The notes under the pieces are model-generated. The model searched no databases. It was not told the DNA's origin and saw only the letters and a list, made by a program, of their open reading frames with translations. Of a stretch of DNA of 64,000 nucleotides, positions 854 to 14,498 are shown in pieces (position 1 is the first letter of the stretch; every line of letters begins with the position of its first letter). This stretch comes from Candidatus Aenigmatarchaeota archaeon (GTDB taxonomy: Archaea > Aenigmatarchaeota > Aenigmatarchaeia > QMZP01 > QMZT01): positions 256,001 through 320,000 of the forward strand of contig CAVSBQ010000002.1 of the NCBI GenBank assembly GCA_963726265.1, given 5' to 3'. A program made the translations under genes and the position numbers.

Positions 854-1150
854 ATGAGAGAGTCATTAGAGCTTGTGATTATAGCTATTACGCTTCTTGT
901 GGCGGCGCTAGTTGTTCTGACGATTTTTGGAAGTGGAATGTCACCTTTCGGTAACTTGACATCATTCAAAACCAACTGTATAACTACCGGACAGGTTGCA
1001 TGCACAAGCGGCGGATCAGAACCTGCAACTTGGTATCAAAAGGTCAATGTCGGCGGCGAACAAAAAAGCTGCTCAGATATAGCGACATTCGGCACATGTT
1101 GCACAGGCACACCACCAAAATGGAATAGCCAATCATCTGGTTGCGCTTAG
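854..1150 (+). CDS. Type IV pilin-like protein, Cys-rich C-terminus
   Basis: MRESLELVIIAITLLVAALVVL: SLE motif plus hydrophobic helix; several Cys; TTTAAATA upstream. Confidence 0.7.
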   Translation: MRESLELVIIAITLLVAALVVLTIFGSGMSPFGNLTSFKTNCITTGQVACTSGGSEPATWYQKVNVGGEQKSCSDIATFGTCCTGTPPKWNSQSSGCA

Positions 1151-1186
1151 TCTTCTATTTTTATATGGTTTTGTCAATTATTACTC

Positions 1187-1564
1187 ATGAGACTTTCTCT
1201 TGAAATCACGGTTATTGCGATTGTTCTACTGGTGATAGCTGCGGTGCTCATAGGCATTTTTGTGACGGGCGTAAACAATGTAAGTCCTTACACAGATGCC
1301 AGGGCCAACTGCATCAATACCGGCTTCTCAGTATGCAAGTCTATGGGAGTTCTGCCGCCCATGTGGTCGACACAGACATATATTTACAATGGCCAGCAGC
1401 AGACATGCCAGCAGATAACCGGATACAATGACTGCTCTCCTCTCGGCATCCCGAAGTGCTCCGGAACATGCAAAATCAGTTGTGACCTGTCGACAGAAAA
1501 GGAAATACCATCGACCCAGGGCACTTGCACCATTGGTCAGATATGCTGCACGAAAAAGGTTTAA
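1187..1564 (+). CDS. Type IV pilin-like protein, Cys-rich; paralog of 854-1150
   Basis: MRLSLEITVIAIVLLVIAAVL; shares NCIxTG..xC...P.xW...C with the previous ORF; extra C-terminal Cys-rich module. Confidence 0.72.
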   Translation: MRLSLEITVIAIVLLVIAAVLIGIFVTGVNNVSPYTDARANCINTGFSVCKSMGVLPPMWSTQTYIYNGQQQTCQQITGYNDCSPLGIPKCSGTCKISCDLSTEKEIPSTQGTCTIGQICCTKKV

Positions 1565-1570
1565 ACCTTT

Positions 1571-3783
1571 TCAAGAAGGCCACGTTATTGCTCTATCTCT
1601 GCCGACTTCTGTCAAGAAACCCGTCCCTGCGCCCAAGAATAAAAGCAGGTATGTTGGATTTCCTTGAAAACAAGCAGCGATCGCGAGACCAGCGCTGGCG
1701 GCTCTTCCTGCCCACGTGAGTACAACCTGTCCTGTGCTAAGGTATCTGACACAATAGTTATTACCTTCAACATCAGTTCTTTTGCTTCCCATCCCTGTCA
1801 AATCAATGGTAATGCCGTCTATCATACATTCGCCAACACTGATGCTTTTTGTTGCAAAGGTCTCATCACCGATTTCTTGCATGTCATTATAAATCAAATA
1901 ATTTTCGTCGGCATAAACGCCTATCTCATCATATTTTCCATTGAGGTCATTGTCTCCGATAATCCAAAAACATTTGTTTGGCCAGTCGCTAACAGCGTCG
2001 CCTGTTTTTTTGCATTTATCATTGTTTATCCTAAACAAAACAAACTCAACCGGTATGAAATCCGTAGTTACTTTGCTCCTGTTAATGAATATGGTAATGT
2101 CGTCCAGGATGTTGGCCGCATCTTGCTGAACTCCTGGTGTTTTTTTCAGTTCATCTGTTGAAAAATAGCAGGGAGATATTTGTTCAGTTCATTCTCAGGT
2201 ATGCCGATAAAATATAATGATGATGGTGGGAGGCCTAAATCATAACATTTCAAAGGTATGTCTTCAATGATTTTTTCTTCAAGGTTTACACCACCTGTGC
2301 TCAAATCAACATCGTGGTAATCAAAATAATAATAAGTGAAGTAGCTGTTGCTCGTATCTACTTTTTTGAACAAAAGATATGTTTGCCTGTTTTCATTTAC
2401 CTTTCTTAAAGGCAGGTAAATCTTGCCGACAGCCTCTACGCTTTGGTTGTTTGTTTCGCCGAACAGATCCTTGCTGTCATCTTTTGACAAGGCCTCCAGA
2501 ATGTCAAAGACGTCATAACCTATATAACTGTTCACAGAATCTTTATCGAAATTATTACATATGTGGTATTTTGCATTGTTGCCTATACTATCTGGATCGG
2601 CGCATGTTGTCGATCCTGTGTTTGGGTCATACACATACTTTTCACACAAGAAATTGTTTTTGGCTACGTCGAAATTACTGAGATAGCATGGTGAAGCCAT
2701 ATGAAAATTTTTCTCCACTGTTCCTGCTTCCGGTTTCCATTTCAGTATAACCGGTTTGCCCTCGAGCTTGCTGTCAAGATTAAATTCTTCCTTCTCCTCG
2801 AAAGGCGATTTTAAAATAATTTTATTTCCGGATGGTATGTATTTTGCTGTGTCACTCGAGTAAAGAGCTAAAGCAATTGCCGCAGTTTCCATCGTTGCGA
2901 ATCTTTTTCCTGTTTTCGTTATAAATTGCGTCAGGCCATATTTTTCTATCCTGTCCGTGATTATTTTTTTAATAGCTTCCTCTTTTATATATTCGTTTAG
3001 GATTTGGGTTCTGCCTTCGTATTTTATGGCATTTTTAACCAGCTTTTTGACTCCTTCTTCACCCATTTTTTCTATTTCCTCTTTAGCAGCCTCTTTACTA
3101 AGTTCAATCCCAGCTTTTTTTGATAGCATCTGTACCACAAATTCTTCGGAGGGCTTTATCAGCATGGCTGCATCTCTTTCACCACAAACCCGGCAATTTT
3201 AGTTGGCGGTATCAAAGAAACCAGAGCGAACATAAGATGCACTTTCCAATTGCTTTGTAAAGTCCACGTATCTTCATCGCTTGGGAATACATTCCAATAT
3301 GTAATAAACGCAGATCTCCATAATATGGTATCCAGTCTTCTTTCTTTGAAATGTCCTGAGGAAGTTTAAAATTTTTGACAGTGCATCTTGTACTCGTTGT
3401 TTCAATCCCGTTACACTCTACGCTAGTTTCTCCGATGCTGTAATTTTGGCTAGCCGTTCCTGAATTAATGCCATTTGGCTGCTCAGATGATGTTGCCGTC
3501 GCGGTTGCTGTTTTAGAGTATTTTGTATTCAAACCCGGAACATTGGTCCTCATTTGTTGAAACGGTGTTTATGGCGCAAGTCAATGCATCGACAGATGCC
3601 TTGAGAGGTTTCATAATATGCCATTGTATTAGTTTTCTTGCCGAAAAGCTTGTCCATCTGCTTCCCAAACTCACCAAGAAAGCCGCTCTGGCTGGCGATG
3701 CCGCCTATTATTATGATGGTAAACAGCACGACAAGAACCATTCCAATCGGCGTTTTCAAGAAATCTTCTTGGCCCTTCCTCAT
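1571..3783 (-). CDS. Large pilin-like (class III signal) exported protein, split into four ORF fragments
   Basis: N-terminus MRKG|QEDFL followed by a hydrophobic helix; collinear fragments 3550-3783, 3212-3553, 2146-3165 and 1571-2038. That these form one gene is inference. Confidence 0.55.
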
Positions 3784-3796
3784 AATTAATAATTGA

Positions 3797-3821
3797 TATT
3801 TGATTTATATATAATCAAATA
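3797..3821. promoter_or_regulatory. Perfect 9-bp inverted repeat enclosing a TATA box in the divergent promoter region
   Basis: TATTTGATT-TATATAT-AATCAAATA, 14-38 nt upstream of the minus-strand ATG at 3783. Confidence 0.5.
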
Positions 3822-3886
3822 AAAGCGATGGCTGATTGGCGAATCTGGTTTCAAATTTAATAAGCAGGCCGCTTAAAATATTAAAT

Positions 3887-3997
3887 ATGAAGGCATTCTC
3901 CCAGCTTCTGACCGGAGGCATGATAACCTTTTTCATGGGTGTGGTAGTTTTCGTCATAATGGCGCTGCTTGCCGCGAAATGGCTGGGTTATATATGA
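3887..3997 (+). CDS. 36-aa pilin-like peptide (not in ORF track)
   Basis: MKA|FSQLLTGGMITFFMGVVVFVIMALLAAKWLGYI; TTTAATAA about 25 nt upstream; its stop overlaps the GAGGTG RBS of the next gene. Confidence 0.6.
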   Translation: MKAFSQLLTGGMITFFMGVVVFVIMALLAAKWLGYI

Positions 3998-4007
3998 GGT
4001 GCTATGC

Positions 4008-4205
4008 ATGAAAAAAGGTCAGACTCCGGACATGCTGTTCTGGTTTGTTACAATACTCATTGCAGTCGGCGTTGCTATAGTGCTTACCCTTTTCTTCGTA
4101 AATACGTCAAAGACCTTCGACAGGCCTTCGGAAGAAAATCCGCTTATACAGAATGTTGCGCCGTTGGTTCTTTTGATGTTTTTTAAGCTCAGAAAACAAA
4201 TATAA
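4008..4205 (+). CDS. Pilin-like protein (class III signal peptide)
   Basis: MKKG|QTPDMLFWFVTILIAVGVAIVLTLFF; GAGGTG RBS. Confidence 0.7.
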   Translation: MKKGQTPDMLFWFVTILIAVGVAIVLTLFFVNTSKTFDRPSEENPLIQNVAPLVLLMFFKLRKQI

Positions 4206-4209
4206 GTTT

Positions 4210-4778
4210 ATGAAAAGGGGTTCTCAGAGTTTGATAATCTTCACTGCCGTGGCTGCAGTTTTTATCGTTCTTGCATTGGTTATAGGTAACAGATGGTTTA
4301 CGTATTTGGTCAATGGCAAATGCGTTTCAGACACACTGAGGGACATCGATATCATGACAGACCAGTTCAAGAGTTCTTCAACGGAATGGCACGCAATAGC
4401 TATAAGGATGAATGACTGATACAGCGGCGTAGTCTTCGCTAACGGTCAGCAATGGAAGACCGTTACAGAGCTAAAGGGTATGAAAGAGGTGAAATGCAGC
4501 GATGATGCGGACGCACACATATTAATCTTCAAGAGGGATATAGGGTTGGTGGAGGCAATTAAATCAAGGAAAAAGTACTGGCTGCTGTGATTGCACGTGA
4601 TGTAACTTTGAGGGATGTATACGGCTATACGTTTTTTACCAATATGCCGGGAGGGGTTCTGGCAGGCTCGGGGTAAAGGATGAGTCTCTGATTTATTGTC
4701 TCGTATTCAGGATAGATCAAAAAAACAAGGGAATAGAAATAACCAAATGGGAAACTGTCAGCGCAAAGGAGAAATGTA
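4210..4778 (+). CDS. Pilin-like protein, interrupted after 4419 (end approximate)
   Basis: MKRG|SQSLIIFTAVAAVFIVLALVIG; coding-like sequence continues to about 4778 across frame breaks. Confidence 0.5.
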
Positions 4779-4791
4779 AAATTTGATTACG

Positions 4792-5997
4792 ATGAAACTC
4801 AAGGGCGACATACCCGGAGAAAGGATGATGATTTTCATTGGCGTGGTACTCATAGGCATGCTTTTTCTGACCACAATTATTCTGCAAACGCTTACGCCAA
4901 ACCTTAAATCCAGCGAGGAAGCAAGATTCTCCCTATTTCGCGCACACCATTGCTTCATATATAGGGATGTTGTCGAGCGTTGAAAGCGGCGTGGTGGAAA
5001 GGGACTTCGAGGAACCGGTAGACATACAAATCAAAAAATATACATGGATAGGAACGTTGACGCATATGAGACAGAGGCCCGCCGTCTATTATGTAGAGGT
5101 TCGTTTACAGGAAAGGGGATCAAAAAAGCAAAAAGATGTTCCCTGACATGACAAATTGCGAAGTCGACTGCCTCAACGAGAACTGCAAATGTGAAAGCTG
5201 TTCTGAGGGTGAATGCACCATTGTCTCTCTTGAAAAATCGACCACCAGCGAGGCCGTTCCTTTCATAGGTTTCGTTGACACGGGCAGTGAAAATTCAATT
5301 AACATAACAGGCATGAGATTCGTATCGCTCCGAAAAGATTCGTCTTCCCAAAGGCGTCAAAATCGGCAAAGTCGAGATAAGTATCTTTTTGTACAGAGCC
5401 CTCTGAAAGCGATATTATAAACGTAATAGACAGTTACTGCGCTAAATACGGCCTTGACAAGAATGTCGTGAAGGCGCACATAACAGCCGAAACCGGCTTC
5501 AAGCATTGCGGCCCTGAGGGAGAAATTATAGGTTCAGAGGCCGGTGCCCAAGGAATAATGCAGCTTTTGCCCGCAAACGGCAAACGAAATGGCCACAAAA
5601 TACAACGAGAATATAGATTACCGGAACCCTCTCGACAACATAAAGGCGGGCATACTTTATCTTTACGACAGAAGGATGGTGATGGAACAATACACGCAAA
5701 GGGAGGATCTTGACAGGGTGATGGTCGCCAGTTATAACTGCGGCAAAATAGTTGAACTGGTTCAAAAAAATCTGCAATAAAAACGAAGCCGGATGCTGGA
5801 GCAATGTGGAAAAATACATAAATTCCAAAAACCCAGAGGGAACATACTGCCAGGGGGCGAATGGTGATGAAACTTATAACCATGTGAAAAAGGTTTTCGA
5901 AAAGTATAAGCCTTGTTTCGAAAACAACCCCACCTGTTATTTCGCGTGTTTCGGCTCGTCGTGTGCGGCTAGATTGTGGGAGGTTACGGTAAAATGA
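4792..5997 (+). CDS. Pilin-like protein with C-terminal lytic transglycosylase (SLT/GH23) domain; multiple frameshifts
   Basis: N-terminus MKLKG|DIPGE plus hydrophobic helix. Joining frames over about 5381-5997 gives YGLDKNVVKAHITAETG...SEAGAQGIMQLLP...NPLDNIKAGILYL...MVASYNCG...DETYNHVKKV, i.e. the SLT motifs in order. The join to the pilin N-terminus is inferred. Confidence 0.78.
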
Positions 5998-6422
5998 AGG
6001 GAGACTACGAGTTTCTGAACATAACTTTCGCATTGATCATATTCATGGGCACAATAGTGCTGATTGTGCTGATGATAAGGGGCAACATACTAAGCTTCAG
6101 CGGAGGCGTGGCCTCCGATGTGACTCAAATAAATGCAATAGAAGCTTCTCACATGGTTGAATATTGCTTCACAAGCATGGAAGGCGGCGACTCGGAGAAC
6201 ATAGCAACCACGCTTCTTGACAAATACAACGGCAAGAGCATCGCTGAGATATGCAAAATAGACAAGCCGGAGATAAAAGTTGAGATAATAGACATGGAAA
6301 ACGAGAAAAAATGGAGCTTCGGCACAGTTTCGAAATCGAATCACGAAATATGGGTTTCAATAATTTACGAAAATGCAGGCGTTAAAAGTGTAAATATGGG
6401 GAAGATGAATGTCGAAATATAG
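5994..6422 (+). CDS. Pilin-like protein (class III signal peptide)
   Basis: MKG|DYEFLNITFALIIFMGTIVLIVLMI; start overlaps the upstream stop (ATGA). Confidence 0.7.
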   Translation: MKGDYEFLNITFALIIFMGTIVLIVLMIRGNILSFSGGVASDVTQINAIEASHMVEYCFTSMEGGDSENIATTLLDKYNGKSIAEICKIDKPEIKVEIIDMENEKKWSFGTVSKSNHEIWVSIIYENAGVKSVNMGKMNVEI

Positions 6423-7404
6423 CGGAATGGTCGACACCATAGTCCTCGTTGTGATAGCTGCGGCACTGCTTGGGGCTTTTTTCATATTCATTCAGATAAA
6501 CAACTTCATAGGCATAATAAAAATAAAGGGAGAGGTTGATGTTTACCTGAACATACAGGATCAAGGAACACAACTGCTCAGTTTCCTCAAATCCCAGAAA
6601 AGCGGCACTAACTACATGGGAATGCTGGGTTCATATGCGGCAAAGGATACACCGGATGAATATGACAAAGAAATAACTTCGACATTGCAGAAGCTTGGAG
6701 ATTATGACCTTTTCGTCCAAAATCAGAGCCAGGAAATAATAAAGGAATTCAAATCAGTAAATTCACCAGCAGGCGGACAGAATATAGGTGTTGTGATAAA
6801 ACTTGACTGGCCGTTGAAAAATCACAATACGATAAACAACGGATACGGATGGAGGGATCTGTCTGGCAAAAGGGATTTCCATGGAGGCCTGGACTTTGCA
6901 GTCACGGAAGAAGAAGTTTATTCCGCATACCCGACTGGTAAAGTCGTAAGGATGGGCAAGGGGTGTGAACCGTCACCAAATGTCTGTGCTAATGTCGATT
7001 CTTGTGCTACAAGTAACGATCAGTATTGCTGCTGCAATAGCGGCCTTGGGAATTTCGTTGTGATAAAGCACGAAATTAGCGGAGAAACTTTCTACACGCA
7101 TTATGACCATCTTAAAGAGGTTTACGTCCACATGAATGACGAAATAGGTAAGGATATAATGCCAGACCAGCCTATAGCGAAGTCAGGCAATACAGGGTAT
7201 ATACAGGGGGAGAACGGCTATCATCTTCATTTCGAAATGAGCAAGAGCGAAATTAAAAGCGATGACGCCTCCATAGACCCTTGCATCTATTTCCCACAGC
7301 CTGTGCCAGTAAACTGCGAACAGGAATCGCATCGGCCTGCTGGCCTTTCGGTTGATATACCGCTTCCTAATGGGCAGGTTGGAGAGGTATCGTTGATAAC
7401 ATGA
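6409..7404 (+). CDS. M23-family zinc metallopeptidase with pilin-like N-terminal helix
   Basis: GYGWR...FHGGLDF (HxxxD), GLGNFVVIKH, YTHYDHL, SGNTG, HLHFE (HxH), IDP; N-terminus MSKYSG|MVDTIVLVVIAAALL. Confidence 0.9.
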   Translation: MSKYSGMVDTIVLVVIAAALLGAFFIFIQINNFIGIIKIKGEVDVYLNIQDQGTQLLSFLKSQKSGTNYMGMLGSYAAKDTPDEYDKEITSTLQKLGDYDLFVQNQSQEIIKEFKSVNSPAGGQNIGVVIKLDWPLKNHNTINNGYGWRDLSGKRDFHGGLDFAVTEEEVYSAYPTGKVVRMGKGCEPSPNVCANVDSCATSNDQYCCCNSGLGNFVVIKHEISGETFYTHYDHLKEVYVHMNDEIGKDIMPDQPIAKSGNTGYIQGENGYHLHFEMSKSEIKSDDASIDPCIYFPQPVPVNCEQESHRPAGLSVDIPLPNGQVGEVSLIT

Positions 7405-8150
7405 AAAAAGCACAAGGCGCGGTTTTATTGGCAATAATGTTAATAGTAATTACTGTAATAATAATAAGCAGCCTTCAATTTTACTTGTCCAGCAGCATAG
7501 AAAAAAAATCAGAACTCCAATTCGATGAAGACCTTTATGTAACCGAGAATGCACTCAGGCTATCCAAGCTTTATCTGGAAACGGCCCTAGATTACTCTGT
7601 TTATCAGGCAATGTTTGATGCAGGAAAGGATGGTCTACCTAAAAACATCGATGACCTGAAAGGTAAACTCGCGTCTAAAATTTCAGAAAACATGAAAAAA
7701 TACACGGAAAGGGAATTTAACTTCATAGGGAAAATAGCGAGACTTCCGACCTACGATAAAAATATGCTAACGATAGAAAAATTCGGCGAAAACGATTTAA
7801 ACGTTTCAGCCACAGGAAACGGTAATATTTATTTTGAGGAAACAACAACCGTGCAAATGGAGAAAAAATACATAAGACTTGAACTTTCGTCGTATCTGGA
7901 AAGAATTTACAGTTTCAATTTCTTTGGTCTTTATGAAAAAGCGCTGGAATTCTCGAACAAAATAAACGAGTGCGAAGACGAAAAGATAATCGACGGTATT
8001 TATGAGATTTCATTGGCGACGGACCAAAACAAAAAACCATGCAATGTCAAGGTTTCGGTTAAAGACGTCTCCCAAACCTTCCCCGTCTTCAACGGCAGGG
8101 AGGTTGCCTTCGAACCGGTCGTTTTCGAGTTCCTTGTGAGCGTCGCGTGA
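7401..8150 (+). CDS. Pilin-like protein (class III signal peptide)
   Basis: MKKA|QGAVLLAIMLIVITVIII; ATGA overlap with the M23 gene. Confidence 0.7.
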   Translation: MKKAQGAVLLAIMLIVITVIIISSLQFYLSSSIEKKSELQFDEDLYVTENALRLSKLYLETALDYSVYQAMFDAGKDGLPKNIDDLKGKLASKISENMKKYTEREFNFIGKIARLPTYDKNMLTIEKFGENDLNVSATGNGNIYFEETTTVQMEKKYIRLELSSYLERIYSFNFFGLYEKALEFSNKINECEDEKIIDGIYEISLATDQNKKPCNVKVSVKDVSQTFPVFNGREVAFEPVVFEFLVSVA

Positions 8151-8338
8151 GGCAGGCCGGAATATTTTATTGCCGGATTATTTTTGCACGCCCCGAGTAG
8201 TTAAAACTTTAAAAGCCAGCCTACAATTTATAAGTACGGCCAAGCTGATTGGCCAGCAGATGACAGCCAAAAGAGGCGAAAAAGCGGAACAGACTATTAG
8301 AACGAAACAACGACTGAGAAATTTAGGAGGTGCTTAGC

Positions 8339-8698
8339 ATGGCAGAAGAAAAGAGGGAAGCAAAACACGAAATCAGGGAAAACAGGCAAACCGAGGCAAG
8401 AACCGAGAGAACGGAGAGGCCGAGGTCAAGGGCGGACGACAACGTGGTATTCGTAGGTAAGAAGCCGACGATGTCATACGTCCTGGCCGTGATAACGCAG
8501 TTCTCCGAAGGGAGGAATGAGGTCCACATAAAAGCGAGAGGCCGCTCGATATCCAGGGCAGTCGATGTCGTGGAAGTCGTGAGGAACAGGTTCGTCAACA
8601 ACGTCAAGCACTCCATAGAGATAGGGACGGAGAAGCTAGTGGCCGAGAACAACATGGACATAAACGTCTCCACGATTGACATAAAACTCGTGAAGTAA
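8339..8698 (+). CDS. albA: DNA/RNA-binding protein Alba with charged N-terminal extension
   Basis: [15 protein letters not shown]...[14 protein letters not shown]...NVSTIDI; GGAGGTG RBS. Confidence 0.95.
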
Positions 8699-9056: not shown

Positions 9057-10172
9057 TCACTTCAAGAACTTGTCTATATGTTTCCTTGCATGCTCGCGCT
9101 TCCTCGCGTGGTCGAGCAGGAACGCCTCCATCTTTTCTATGAGCATCTGCTTGAGCTCGCCTGAGAGCATCTTGCCGGATTTGTAGTCGTCGTATATCTG
9201 CTGCATCTTTTTGTCGTCGGGCTCGAACTGTGAGTAGAGGTATTGGTAGGCGACGTCGACCTCCGGGACGCCTCCTCGCTTTCGATGCTCCGCCAGCGTG
9301 TCGCGGCCGCCGGAGAAGGCGTATTTCATTATCTTGCTCCTCGCCGTGTCAGGGTCGTCGGTGAGCGCGATGTAGGAATACGGGTCGGAGCTGGACATCT
9401 TGCCGCCTTTCAGGCCCTTGATGAACGCATGATAGGTTGACGACGGCGGCGTGAACTTGTGCTCCTTTTCGAAACGTGACGCGATGTCCCTGCTCAGGCG
9501 GATGTGCGGGTCCTGATCCACGCCGACCGGCACGACTACGTGCCTGTAGCCGCCGAATTCCGGCAGCATGGGGTGAAGGATGTCCGCGACCTGCGTCATG
9601 ACGGACACGACCTTGCCCGGCGTGATTTCGCCGTATACTGCTTTCATCTCGTTGAACGTCACCTTCTTCGCCGACATGCCGGCGAGGCGGTAAAAGGCGT
9701 TGGCCTGGTCCGGGTTTTTCGAGCGGGCACTCTGGAAGTAGAAGTCGCAGTTATTCGGCTCGAGGCCGAGAGCGATGTAGTTGAGCAGGTATTCGTTTAT
9801 GGCGATTTCGCGCAGCTTCTCCATGTCGTCTATGCGCATGTTGTAGGCCTCGATGTCCGCGACGCAGATGAACACCTTCGCGCCAAGCGTCTTCTGGTGG
9901 TAGATTATCTGTTCGGCAAGGATTTTGTGGCCCAGGTGGAACTTGCCCGAAGGCATGAGCCCCGTCATCATCGCGTAGCCTTCCTTCCTCTGGAGCGCGT
10001 CGAGAATCTTGTCGAAGTCTCTGTGTCCGAACACTATGCCACGCCTCATGAGCAGGTGAGGCTCCTTCATGCGCTTGAGCAGCGGGGCGAAAGGCTGGAT
10101 ACCGAATTCGTCACAGAGCTTGCCGTAATCCTTGACCTCGAACGAGCCCCATGGATTGATTTCAGTCTTCAT
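9057..10172 (-). CDS. trpS: Tryptophan--tRNA ligase (archaeal type)
   Basis: TGLMPSGKFHLGH, VPVGVDQDPH, KMSSS, KYAFSGGR. Confidence 0.95.
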   Translation of the reverse strand: MKTEINPWGSFEVKDYGKLCDEFGIQPFAPLLKRMKEPHLLMRRGIVFGHRDFDKILDALQRKEGYAMMTGLMPSGKFHLGHKILAEQIIYHQKTLGAKVFICVADIEAYNMRIDDMEKLREIAINEYLLNYIALGLEPNNCDFYFQSARSKNPDQANAFYRLAGMSAKKVTFNEMKAVYGEITPGKVVSVMTQVADILHPMLPEFGGYRHVVVPVGVDQDPHIRLSRDIASRFEKEHKFTPPSSTYHAFIKGLKGGKMSSSDPYSYIALTDDPDTARSKIMKYAFSGGRDTLAEHRKRGGVPEVDVAYQYLYSQFEPDDKKMQQIYDDYKSGKMLSGELKQMLIEKMEAFLLDHARKREHARKHIDKFLK

Positions 10173-13415: not shown

Positions 13416-14498
13416 TCAGCGCGTGACTTCGAGACTGTTCACTCTTTCAAGAAGTTCTCTCGCCTTCGCATCTTTCTCGAAATGGCGCCTGACCGGCTCA
13501 AGCAGCCCGTTCAAGTGGAAGGCGGCCGCCTTCTTCAGGTCTGCCGGATGTATCTTGCCGTCCGCATACGCCTTCTCCAGCTCACTGTATTTCTCGAAGC
13601 TCAGGTTGCCGCCGAACTTGGCCGGCCTTTCGATTTCGAAGGCCCTGAACTTGCCGGATTCGAAGATTATGAACCTGCAGTATTCCATGACGGGGTTCTC
13701 CTCCGCCTGTTTTTCGGGGCAGTAGGCTTTCGTTATTTTCCGTTCGACTTCCGCAGGCGGGTCGGTCATGAATATCGCGGAATCCGGCTTCGACTTCGAC
13801 ATCTTCATGTCTATCGTCCTCTCCAGTTTGTCCTTCTCGCTGCTCGCCGGCTTGAGCAGCCCCATGAGCATGTGGTGCGAGACGACGACGGGTTTCCAGT
13901 AGCCGAGCTTCGGCCCTATCTCGCGCGCGAGCATGTTGACCTTCCTCTGATCCATGCCGAGCTGGCAGATGTCCGCCTTCAGCTGGAATATGTCCGCTGC
14001 CTGCATACATGGATAAAGGACCTGTGACGCCTGCTGCACCTCGCTCTCCTTCCTGCCCATTATCTGGCCGCAGCGGATTATGCGGTTCACCGTGGCGTTG
14101 CGCGAAACCTGCATGACCTTCTTCCAATAATCATCGTCCTTCACGAGCTCGGACGCCCATACGAATTCGACATTCCCTACGTCGAGCCCGCAGGCCTTCC
14201 AGACCTCGATCAAATATTTGCCCACGGTCTGTATGTTCTCCAGGTTGCCGCCCATCTTGTTGTTGGCCCAGCCGTGCCAGTCCGCGACCAGCATCTTGAA
14301 GCGACAACCAGCGAGAATCATCTTGTTTATGTTTATCGCGCGGAGCAAACCCTGGGCTATGTGGACCTTGCCGCTCGGCTCGAAGCCGTCATACGCTATC
14401 GGTTGCGAATTCTTTTCGAGCAGCTCGCGCAGCTCCTGCTGGGTCACGATCTCCTCGCCTACGCGCGAAACCAGTTCGATTCTTTTTTCGAGGTTCAT
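13416..14498 (-). CDS. tyrS: Tyrosine--tRNA ligase (archaeal type)
   Basis: YDGFEPSGKVHIAQG, YPCMQAADI, GMDQRK, KMSKS. Confidence 0.96.
   Translation of the reverse strand: MNLEKRIELVSRVGEEIVTQQELRELLEKNSQPIAYDGFEPSGKVHIAQGLLRAININKMILAGCRFKMLVADWHGWANNKMGGNLENIQTVGKYLIEVWKACGLDVGNVEFVWASELVKDDDYWKKVMQVSRNATVNRIIRCGQIMGRKESEVQQASQVLYPCMQAADIFQLKADICQLGMDQRKVNMLAREIGPKLGYWKPVVVSHHMLMGLLKPASSEKDKLERTIDMKMSKSKPDSAIFMTDPPAEVERKITKAYCPEKQAEENPVMEYCRFIIFESGKFRAFEIERPAKFGGNLSFEKYSELEKAYADGKIHPADLKKAAAFHLNGLLEPVRRHFEKDAKARELLERVNSLEVTR

Follow-up and report, generated by a model that had tools for sequence, protein, structure and literature searches.

The bacterial family 1 lytic transglycosylases Slt70, MltC, MltE and MltF (Pfam PF01464, glycoside hydrolase family GH23) have the catalytic Glu in an E-S/T motif; the motifs G-x-M-Q and A-x-Y-N-C/x-G come after it. 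Large extracellular SLT/GH23 proteins are described from Woese- and Pacearchaeota; in the available text of these papers, the role proposed for them is to bind and degrade bacterial walls (PMC8204110, PMC9723730, PMC10936187, PMC11537232). The bacterial modular pilins PilB and PilC of Streptococcus sanguinis consist of a small N-terminal pilin module with a functional module behind it, and peptidase modules are mentioned among pilins of this kind in the available part of the source (PMC8179133). Described here is a further SLT protein, encoded by a small, symbiotic archaeon of the Aenigmatarchaeota (DPANN). Its gene lies on the plus strand of a 64,000-nucleotide stretch of contig CAVSBQ010000002.1 (positions 256,001 to 320,000, assembly GCA_963726265.1). 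This whole stretch is called the window, and coordinates are those of the window unless another genome or contig is named. Positions 4792–5997 are a single gene of about 399 codons, read in shifting frames. It is part of a conserved operon encoding six to seven pilin-like proteins. That this is one gene, that it has an SLT domain and that its breaks are an artefact of the record is, taken together, held with good confidence.

The catalytic domain and the fold are shared with the bacterial family 1 enzymes, as are the motifs listed above. Unlike those enzymes, the protein has an archaeal host in which no murein ligases were found and no lipoprotein or periplasmic context; the domain is carried by a pilin-like N-terminal module (N-module) and followed by a Cys-rich tail of about 70 residues that has no family. 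Like the Woese- and Pacearchaeota proteins, it is an SLT/GH23 protein of DPANN with a proposed bacterial-wall role. According to the available text those proteins reach 3,000 residues and are lineage-specific, whereas the present one has about 400 residues, belongs to Aenigmatarchaeota, has a pilin-like carrier and is encoded in an operon with an M23 metallopeptidase. From fam00969 of Woese- and Pacearchaeota it is set apart by description only, as far as the available text gives one. Like PilB and PilC, as the available part of their source presents them, it has an N-terminal pilin-type module, with a swappable head here (SLT, Amidase_2 or none). Unlike them, it belongs to an archaeal system known here from genes, matches no pilin model and has a weakly supported pilin fold. 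The text of the modular-pilin paper (PMC8179133) holds neither 'transglycosylase' nor 'archaea'. In the available text of the literature, neither the compact pilin-like SLT protein nor its operon was found described for Aenigmatarchaeota; supplements may list such genes. SLT proteins of DPANN are already described; the compact pilin-carrier design with an M23 operon is, by the same text, apparently new.

From 4700 to 6000 the open reading frames (ORFs) of the plus strand are all short and spread over three frames. The original prediction had joined three of them, 5468–5713, 5589–5780 and 5752–5997, into a hidden lytic transglycosylase by single-base shifts near 5575 and at 5764–5771, and had inferred a further join to a pilin N-terminus at 4792. 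All three are present in the ORF list. The features of the gene are as follows.

4792..5997, plus strand: whole gene of the pilin-like SLT protein, with six single extra bases in the record; ATG at 4792, stop at 5995–5997.
4792..4890, plus strand: N-terminus MKLKGDIPGERMM, then a hydrophobic helix; class-III-signal-like (pilin-like) membrane anchor, from the translation and a motif scan.
4891..5400, plus strand: helix and beta-sheet module with the conserved Cys cluster CxxxC..CxCxxC....C; orthologue modelled with a predicted local distance difference test score (pLDDT) of 88.9.
5420..5780, plus strand: SLT/GH23 lytic transglycosylase domain, catalytic Glu codon at 5489–5491 (AET); from Pfam PF01464 and Foldseek.
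5781..5994, plus strand: Cys-rich C-terminal extension (ETYNHV ... KPCFENNP.CY..C....C) of no known family, without Pfam match.

In a search of related genomes with DNA, the locus is present in 6 of 41, the window's own genome (G000) included. The gene is one open frame of 415, 415 and 397 codons in three of them (G003, G013, G017). A frameshift-aware alignment, which had been suggested as a check, was run with these three intact orthologues against 4700–6010. It extends from 4783/4795 to 5985/5994, which is nearly the entire protein (orthologue residues 4–415), and window and orthologues are identical at 249 of 419, 228 of 408 and 225 of 413 aligned positions. With G003 and G017 the alignment takes six +1 shifts (at 4927–4933, 5102, 5349, 5380, 5576 and 5763–5772) and no stops. 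With G013 the part 5349–5380 is bridged in another way, by a single −1 shift and a single stop. The two predicted shifts recur at the same places, and the inferred join to the N-terminus takes four extra +1 shifts (4927, 5102, 5350 and 5378). Because the intact orthologues align end to end with the window, the join at 4792 is correct; the orthologues share the architecture, and their SLT part has no start of its own. The frame 4783–5997 opens fully after deletion of five read-supported bases and any one base within 5094–5139.

A search with the Pfam SLT profile, also suggested as a check, gave two matches above the curated cut-off of 21.3 bits. Positions 5381–5710 match profile positions 3–59 (21.8 bits, E-value 1.5e-4) and positions 5559–5777 match profile positions 43–98 (27.7 bits, E-value 2.1e-6). 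The third ORF (5752–5997) has no Pfam match. The two pieces fall on consecutive parts of the profile, and one domain therefore runs on across the frames. They are the sole SLT matches in the 1.13-Mb genome; an intact orthologue reaches 43.1 bits. The motifs ITAETGF, GAQGIMQLLP, NIKAGILYL, ASYNCG and ETYNHV are all found across the three frames. Eight orthologues were aligned, with a mean column identity of 65%. Their N-terminal pattern is M-K-K-G-D-x-P-x-x-R, with K, G, D, P and R invariant in all eight. Also invariant in the eight are the six Cys of the carrier cluster, the six Cys and the KPCF/NP motif of the C-terminal tail (about 70 residues), and the catalytic Glu (E239), which stands in E-S or E-N in the orthologues and in AET (5486–5494) in the window. 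The ES of the family aligns with the ES of the solved MltC (9vi7_A), and a profile search against solved structures finds one chain only (E-value 7.5e-4). The full-length orthologue model (415 residues) has a mean pLDDT of 65. In a Foldseek search the top 12 matches of its C-terminal half are MltF, MltC, MltE and Slt (E-values 1.1e-4 to 1.5e-3, probability 0.99–1.00), and matches to these proteins extend to an E-value of about 3e-3. Template modelling (TM) scores are low (0.25–0.31) because they are normalised to the whole 415-residue model, whose mean pLDDT is also modest. With two Pfam matches, the fold matches and the aligned Glu, the assignment to family 1 stands: the domain is of GH23/family 1 type, with predicted lytic transglycosylase activity. 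The claim that automated annotation would miss it is true of the present record, where the domain is hidden in three ORFs. It is not true of cleanly assembled relatives, in which routine annotation already recovers the gene: P0005 is named 'transglycosylase SLT domain-containing protein', which is also the annotation of the orthologue of G003, of the same genus.

The breaks were compared with two public runs, X1 and X2, from separate studies, both labelled freshwater sediment metagenome and each containing roughly half of the words sampled from 3000–8500. Their contigs, of depth 3–8, were aligned onto the window; a third run, X3, yielded no aligned contig. Four X1 pieces over 6055–7747 have no differences and no gaps; X1 is the same strain as the window. 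X2 is 95–99% alike. The sites are as follows.

3177, 3312, 3527 and 4424: further indels in the contigs of X1 and X2.
4564 and 4669: one base added in the contigs of X1 and X2; these are the two −1 sites of the upstream gene.
4927: extra base, site 1; one base omitted in the contigs of both X1 and X2, alignment shift +1 at 4927–4933.
5094..5139: presumed extra base, site 2; +1 shift at about 5102 in three of three alignments, any single omission restores the frame.
5350 and 5378: two extra bases, sites 3 and 4; one base each omitted in X1 and X2, +1 shifts at 5349 and 5380.
5575: extra base, site 5; one base omitted in X2, X1 without cover, +1 shift at 5576.
5771: extra base, site 6, at the end of an A-run; one base omitted in X2, X1 without cover, +1 shift at 5763–5772.

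The original prediction had reckoned with accurate reads confirming the stops; the read-derived contigs are instead without the extra bases at five of the six sites, including the two near 5575 and 5771 that it had named. For the site near 5102 there is no entry among the contig differences listed, and the X2 piece 4953–5253 holds two gaps. Over 3136–5556, four X1 pieces have 10 substitutions and 9 gaps against the window, and the X1 differences listed there are all common to the more distant X2. X1 is identical next door, yet within these 2.6 kb its indels are roughly as numerous as its substitutions; from this we infer consensus error and not divergence. Sites have no common motif and lie mostly outside long homopolymers. 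The main contig is covered to 94.5% by stop-to-stop frames of at least 110 codons. At a 2-kb scale it has only four ORF-poor regions in 1.1 Mb, by which poor quality of the genome as a whole is ruled out; the worst of the four is window 3001–6000. The other ORF-poor stretches of this contig (G000:C2) are 479501–482000, 482501–484500 and 839001–841500, and might be rRNA genes or badly polished. The breaks are most likely assembly or consensus errors of the record, and as such errors they hide nothing biological.

Some observations weigh against this. The evidence for the break near 5102 is the orthologue alignment, the breaks at 5575 and 5771 are supported by the 95–99% strain X2 only, and contigs of depth 3–8 leave some room for a decayed allele in the sequenced population. 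A true pseudogene of the strain, in which the gene and its upstream neighbours were recently inactivated through many small indels, would account for six frameshifts in the gene and at least five more indels across two neighbouring genes, and X1 is possibly not the source sample of the record. It is nevertheless quite improbable. A pseudogene has its disruptions in the DNA of the organism; here five of six are absent from the contigs of one or two runs, and the indels are absent from two read sets of two studies. X1, with indels about as frequent as substitutions within 3136–5556, is identical to the window over the adjoining 1.6 kb. The protein is 55–60% identical to its orthologues, which equals the 57–61% of its intact neighbours (tblastn; next gene 61%, M23 gene 57%). 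In a search with a profile of the eight orthologues (E-value at most 1e-5), 20 of the 22 genomes searched in the same family have kept the gene, which is not decayed; stops within the match occur, among the places listed, in G000 (two entries), G199 and G020. Read-through by programmed +1 frameshifting, or a slippage (phase-variation) switch, has next to no probability and is rejected on the contig evidence and the lack of a common site motif: all six shifts are +1 and one sits at the A-run 5764–5771, but most sites are not in long homopolymers, the shifts of the upstream gene are −1, the frame is plainly open in the orthologues and in both read sets, and six obligatory shifts within one gene are, to our knowledge, unprecedented. 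With record errors as the preferred explanation, the locus is most likely a false pseudogene, in which about a dozen single-base indels within 2.6 kb break three genes of an otherwise clean 1.1-Mb contig and which public read-derived contigs resolve.

All genes from 3783 to 8150 have the same type of start: a short, basic N-terminal stretch with [KR][GA] at its end, in many cases a Q after it, and behind this a hydrophobic helix. The neighbours of the SLT gene are as follows.

Start at 3783, region 1100–3783, minus strand: divergent gene (MRKGQEDFLKTP...), fragmented in the record; needs a +1 shift in alignment.
3999..4205, plus strand: small pilin-like gene (MKKGQTPDMLFWF...), intact; aligns to orthologues of 76–82 residues without shifts.
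4210..4783, plus strand: upstream pilin-like gene of about 190 residues (MKRGSQSLII...), broken by two missing bases and a disturbance near 4424.
5994..6422, plus strand: pilin-like gene (MKGDYEFLNITFALIIF...) of about 143 residues, intact, its ATG overlapping the stop of the SLT gene; from tblastn.
6409..7404, plus strand: M23 metallopeptidase with N-terminal membrane helix, HxxxD (HGGLD) and HxH (HLH); Pfam PF01551, E-value 2.7e-12.
7401..8150, plus strand: last gene of the operon, 249 residues (MKKAQGAVLLAIMLIV...), with pilin-like N-terminus and no family.

The gene at 4210–4783, aligned with orthologues of 188–228 residues, has −1 shifts at 4566–4569 and 4670 and one stop. The contigs have an added C after 4564 and an added G after 4669, and lack one base at 4424. 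The protein of 5994–6422 is 61% identical to its G013 orthologue over residues 1–143. The protein of 6409–7404 is the sole M23 match of the genome; NCBIfam murein endopeptidase families match it below their cut-offs. In the ESM Atlas, the 7401–8150 protein resembles hypothetical proteins from Woesearchaeota and Nanobdellota, with a score of 0.95. Gene order of the operon is identical in G013, G003 and G017.

Pieces of the divergent gene are the ORFs 3550–3783, 3212–3553, 2146–3165 and perhaps 1571–2038, with contig indels at 3177, 3312 and 3527. Its counterpart in G017 has 885 codons (884 residues) and no family, and gives short weak matches only in the genome of the window. The G + C content of the operon region 1100–8150 is 42%, that of the genome 51.8%. 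In relatives the cluster has 39.5% (G017) and 43–44% (G013, with a flank of 48–51%). The other genes of the window are archaeal housekeeping genes, among them those of deoxyhypusine synthase, a GatE-type amidotransferase and an RNA cyclase. On the minus strand, 9057–10172 and 13416–14498 are class I tRNA synthetase genes of the tryptophan/tyrosine family, 3 kb apart and of ordinary appearance; presumably they encode tryptophanyl- and tyrosyl-tRNA synthetase.

The N-module, folded alone from 35 sequences, has a pLDDT of 88.9 and consists of helices at residues 7–33 and 41–61 followed by an antiparallel sheet. In a wide structural search of the N-module with VIA-align, the best match (Z 6.1) is a local one of 41 residues to an RNA ligase. 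The matches that span helix and sheet (residues 34/40–160) are recurrently EpsI, GspI, two Thermus competence pilins, PilE and PilA4. The ESM Atlas gives scores of 0.83 with TM of at most 0.36, to be read as leads only. A motif scan was run over the genome; it was crude, with a motif of our own definition modelled on the rules for class III signals, namely a short charged N-terminus that has [KR][GA] at its end and a hydrophobic helix behind it. It matches 32 of 8416 frames, and six of the 32 lie within 3783–7401 (3.6 kb), the SLT gene included. Of the other matches, some are next to a gene for a pilus ATPase and some begin like classic archaeal pilins. At other places the genome encodes an A24 prepilin peptidase and five T2SSE ATPases. 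Clusters of class-III-signal-like starts outside the window lie at G000:C2 527999–530613, 729613–731072 and 798566–799084; one of these clusters is beside a T2SSE ATPase gene, and they are therefore probably canonical pilus loci.

Several results weigh against a pilin nature of the carrier. Foldseek of the N-module against the PDB gives nothing at an E-value of 1e-3 or below, and archaellins appear only at about 0.35. The pilin and pseudopilin matches of the wide structural search are weak (Z 3.2–4.2) and under the noise bar. No Pfam or NCBIfam model of pilins or class III signals matches any operon protein at E-values up to 0.1–1; the sole trace of a pilin-type model is ComGD (E-value 0.22), on the orthologue of the last gene. 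No pilus ATPase adjoins the operon. Given the lack of a pilin model and the weak fold matches, 'pilin-like' refers to the N-terminal motif and the topology, not to demonstrated homology.

With the profile of eight orthologues, matches are found in 20 of 35 genomes of the sister family and, in the sample of the phylum, in 51 of 301 genomes (G000 included). Against 1.84 billion representatives the profile matches 4803 proteins at an E-value of 1e-3 or below, mostly generic SLT proteins; 76 are at or below 1e-10 and 12 at or below 1e-30. The operon is present in the sister family (L022, L023), where the counterpart of the SLT protein is a stand-alone N-module of 137 residues in L022 and 126 in L023. 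The M23-bearing subunit is without M23 in L022 (159 residues) and with M23 in L023 (311 residues).

L022 2281–2694 and 3087–3566: sister-family operon, stand-alone N-module and counterpart of the M23 subunit.
L023 2055–2435 and 2882–3817: sister-family operon, stand-alone N-module and counterpart of the M23 subunit.

The more distant P0038 (405 residues) has the same N-module fused to an Amidase_2 muramoyl-alanine amidase domain, and P0037 and P0039 have divergent SLT domains. From the stand-alone N-modules, the subunit without M23 and P0038 it follows that the carriers are conserved and the wall-hydrolase heads optional and exchangeable. In G017, about 4 kb upstream of the operon (L010 675–2225), a protein of 516 residues has two LysM repeats, TPM and an Amidase_3 muramoyl-alanine amidase domain. 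A search of the window's own genome for Amidase_3 found none.

Two operon subunits thus have predicted peptidoglycan-hydrolase heads, the SLT protein and the M23 endopeptidase encoded two genes downstream. FolC is the only member of the Mur-ligase family in the genome, and no sign of own murein or pseudomurein synthesis was found in the assembly, which is 88% complete. As no murein ligases were found in the host, the likely target is the bacterial cell wall. Foreign (bacterial) peptidoglycan is somewhat favoured as the target of the SLT and M23 pair. Both enzymes would be exposed on the outside of the cell, either anchored in the membrane or carried by a type-IV-pilus-like filament. The SLT domain may cut glycan strands, and the M23 domain may cut peptide cross-links, in the wall of a bacterial partner or prey; attachment, access or scavenging would be the purpose. 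It is a tentative and rather doubtful proposal that the operon (about 3783–8150) encodes the minor-pilin-like tip of a type-IV-pilus-like filament, with swappable hydrolase heads, by which Aenigmatarchaeota would attach to bacterial cells and drill through their walls.

Two points weigh against a murein target. At 88% completeness, the assembly may miss murein ligase genes. GH23 also includes chitinases, and a Ralstonia GH23 chitinase stands lower among the fold matches. The latter speaks for a real enzyme pair with another role, acting on a non-murein polymer (chitin, or the wall of a host archaeon) or opening the wall for a DNA- or protein-transfer apparatus, in the manner of the VirB1-type hydrolases of type IV secretion, and not serving to feed on or attach to bacteria. 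Conjugation systems of Gram-positive bacteria come with SLT plus M23 or CHAP hydrolases, and the G + C content of the cluster (42% against 51.8% in the genome) fits with such a role. It is nonetheless unlikely: no VirB4- or VirD4-like ATPase is among the scanned ORFs of cluster and flanks, the operon order is kept across at least four genera and two families, the M23 and Amidase_2 heads on the same carrier indicate murein peptides, and a LysM–Amidase_3 gene is near the operon in G017.

The gene places Aenigmatarchaeota among the DPANN lineages with predicted murein-cutting enzymes. The pilus-tip proposal, if true, would make them a DPANN lineage with bacterial rather than archaeal partners or prey. 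If the enzymes act on bacterial walls, they would point to candidate hosts among bacteria for a lineage with largely unknown partners, and would open a direct biochemical approach to the interaction.

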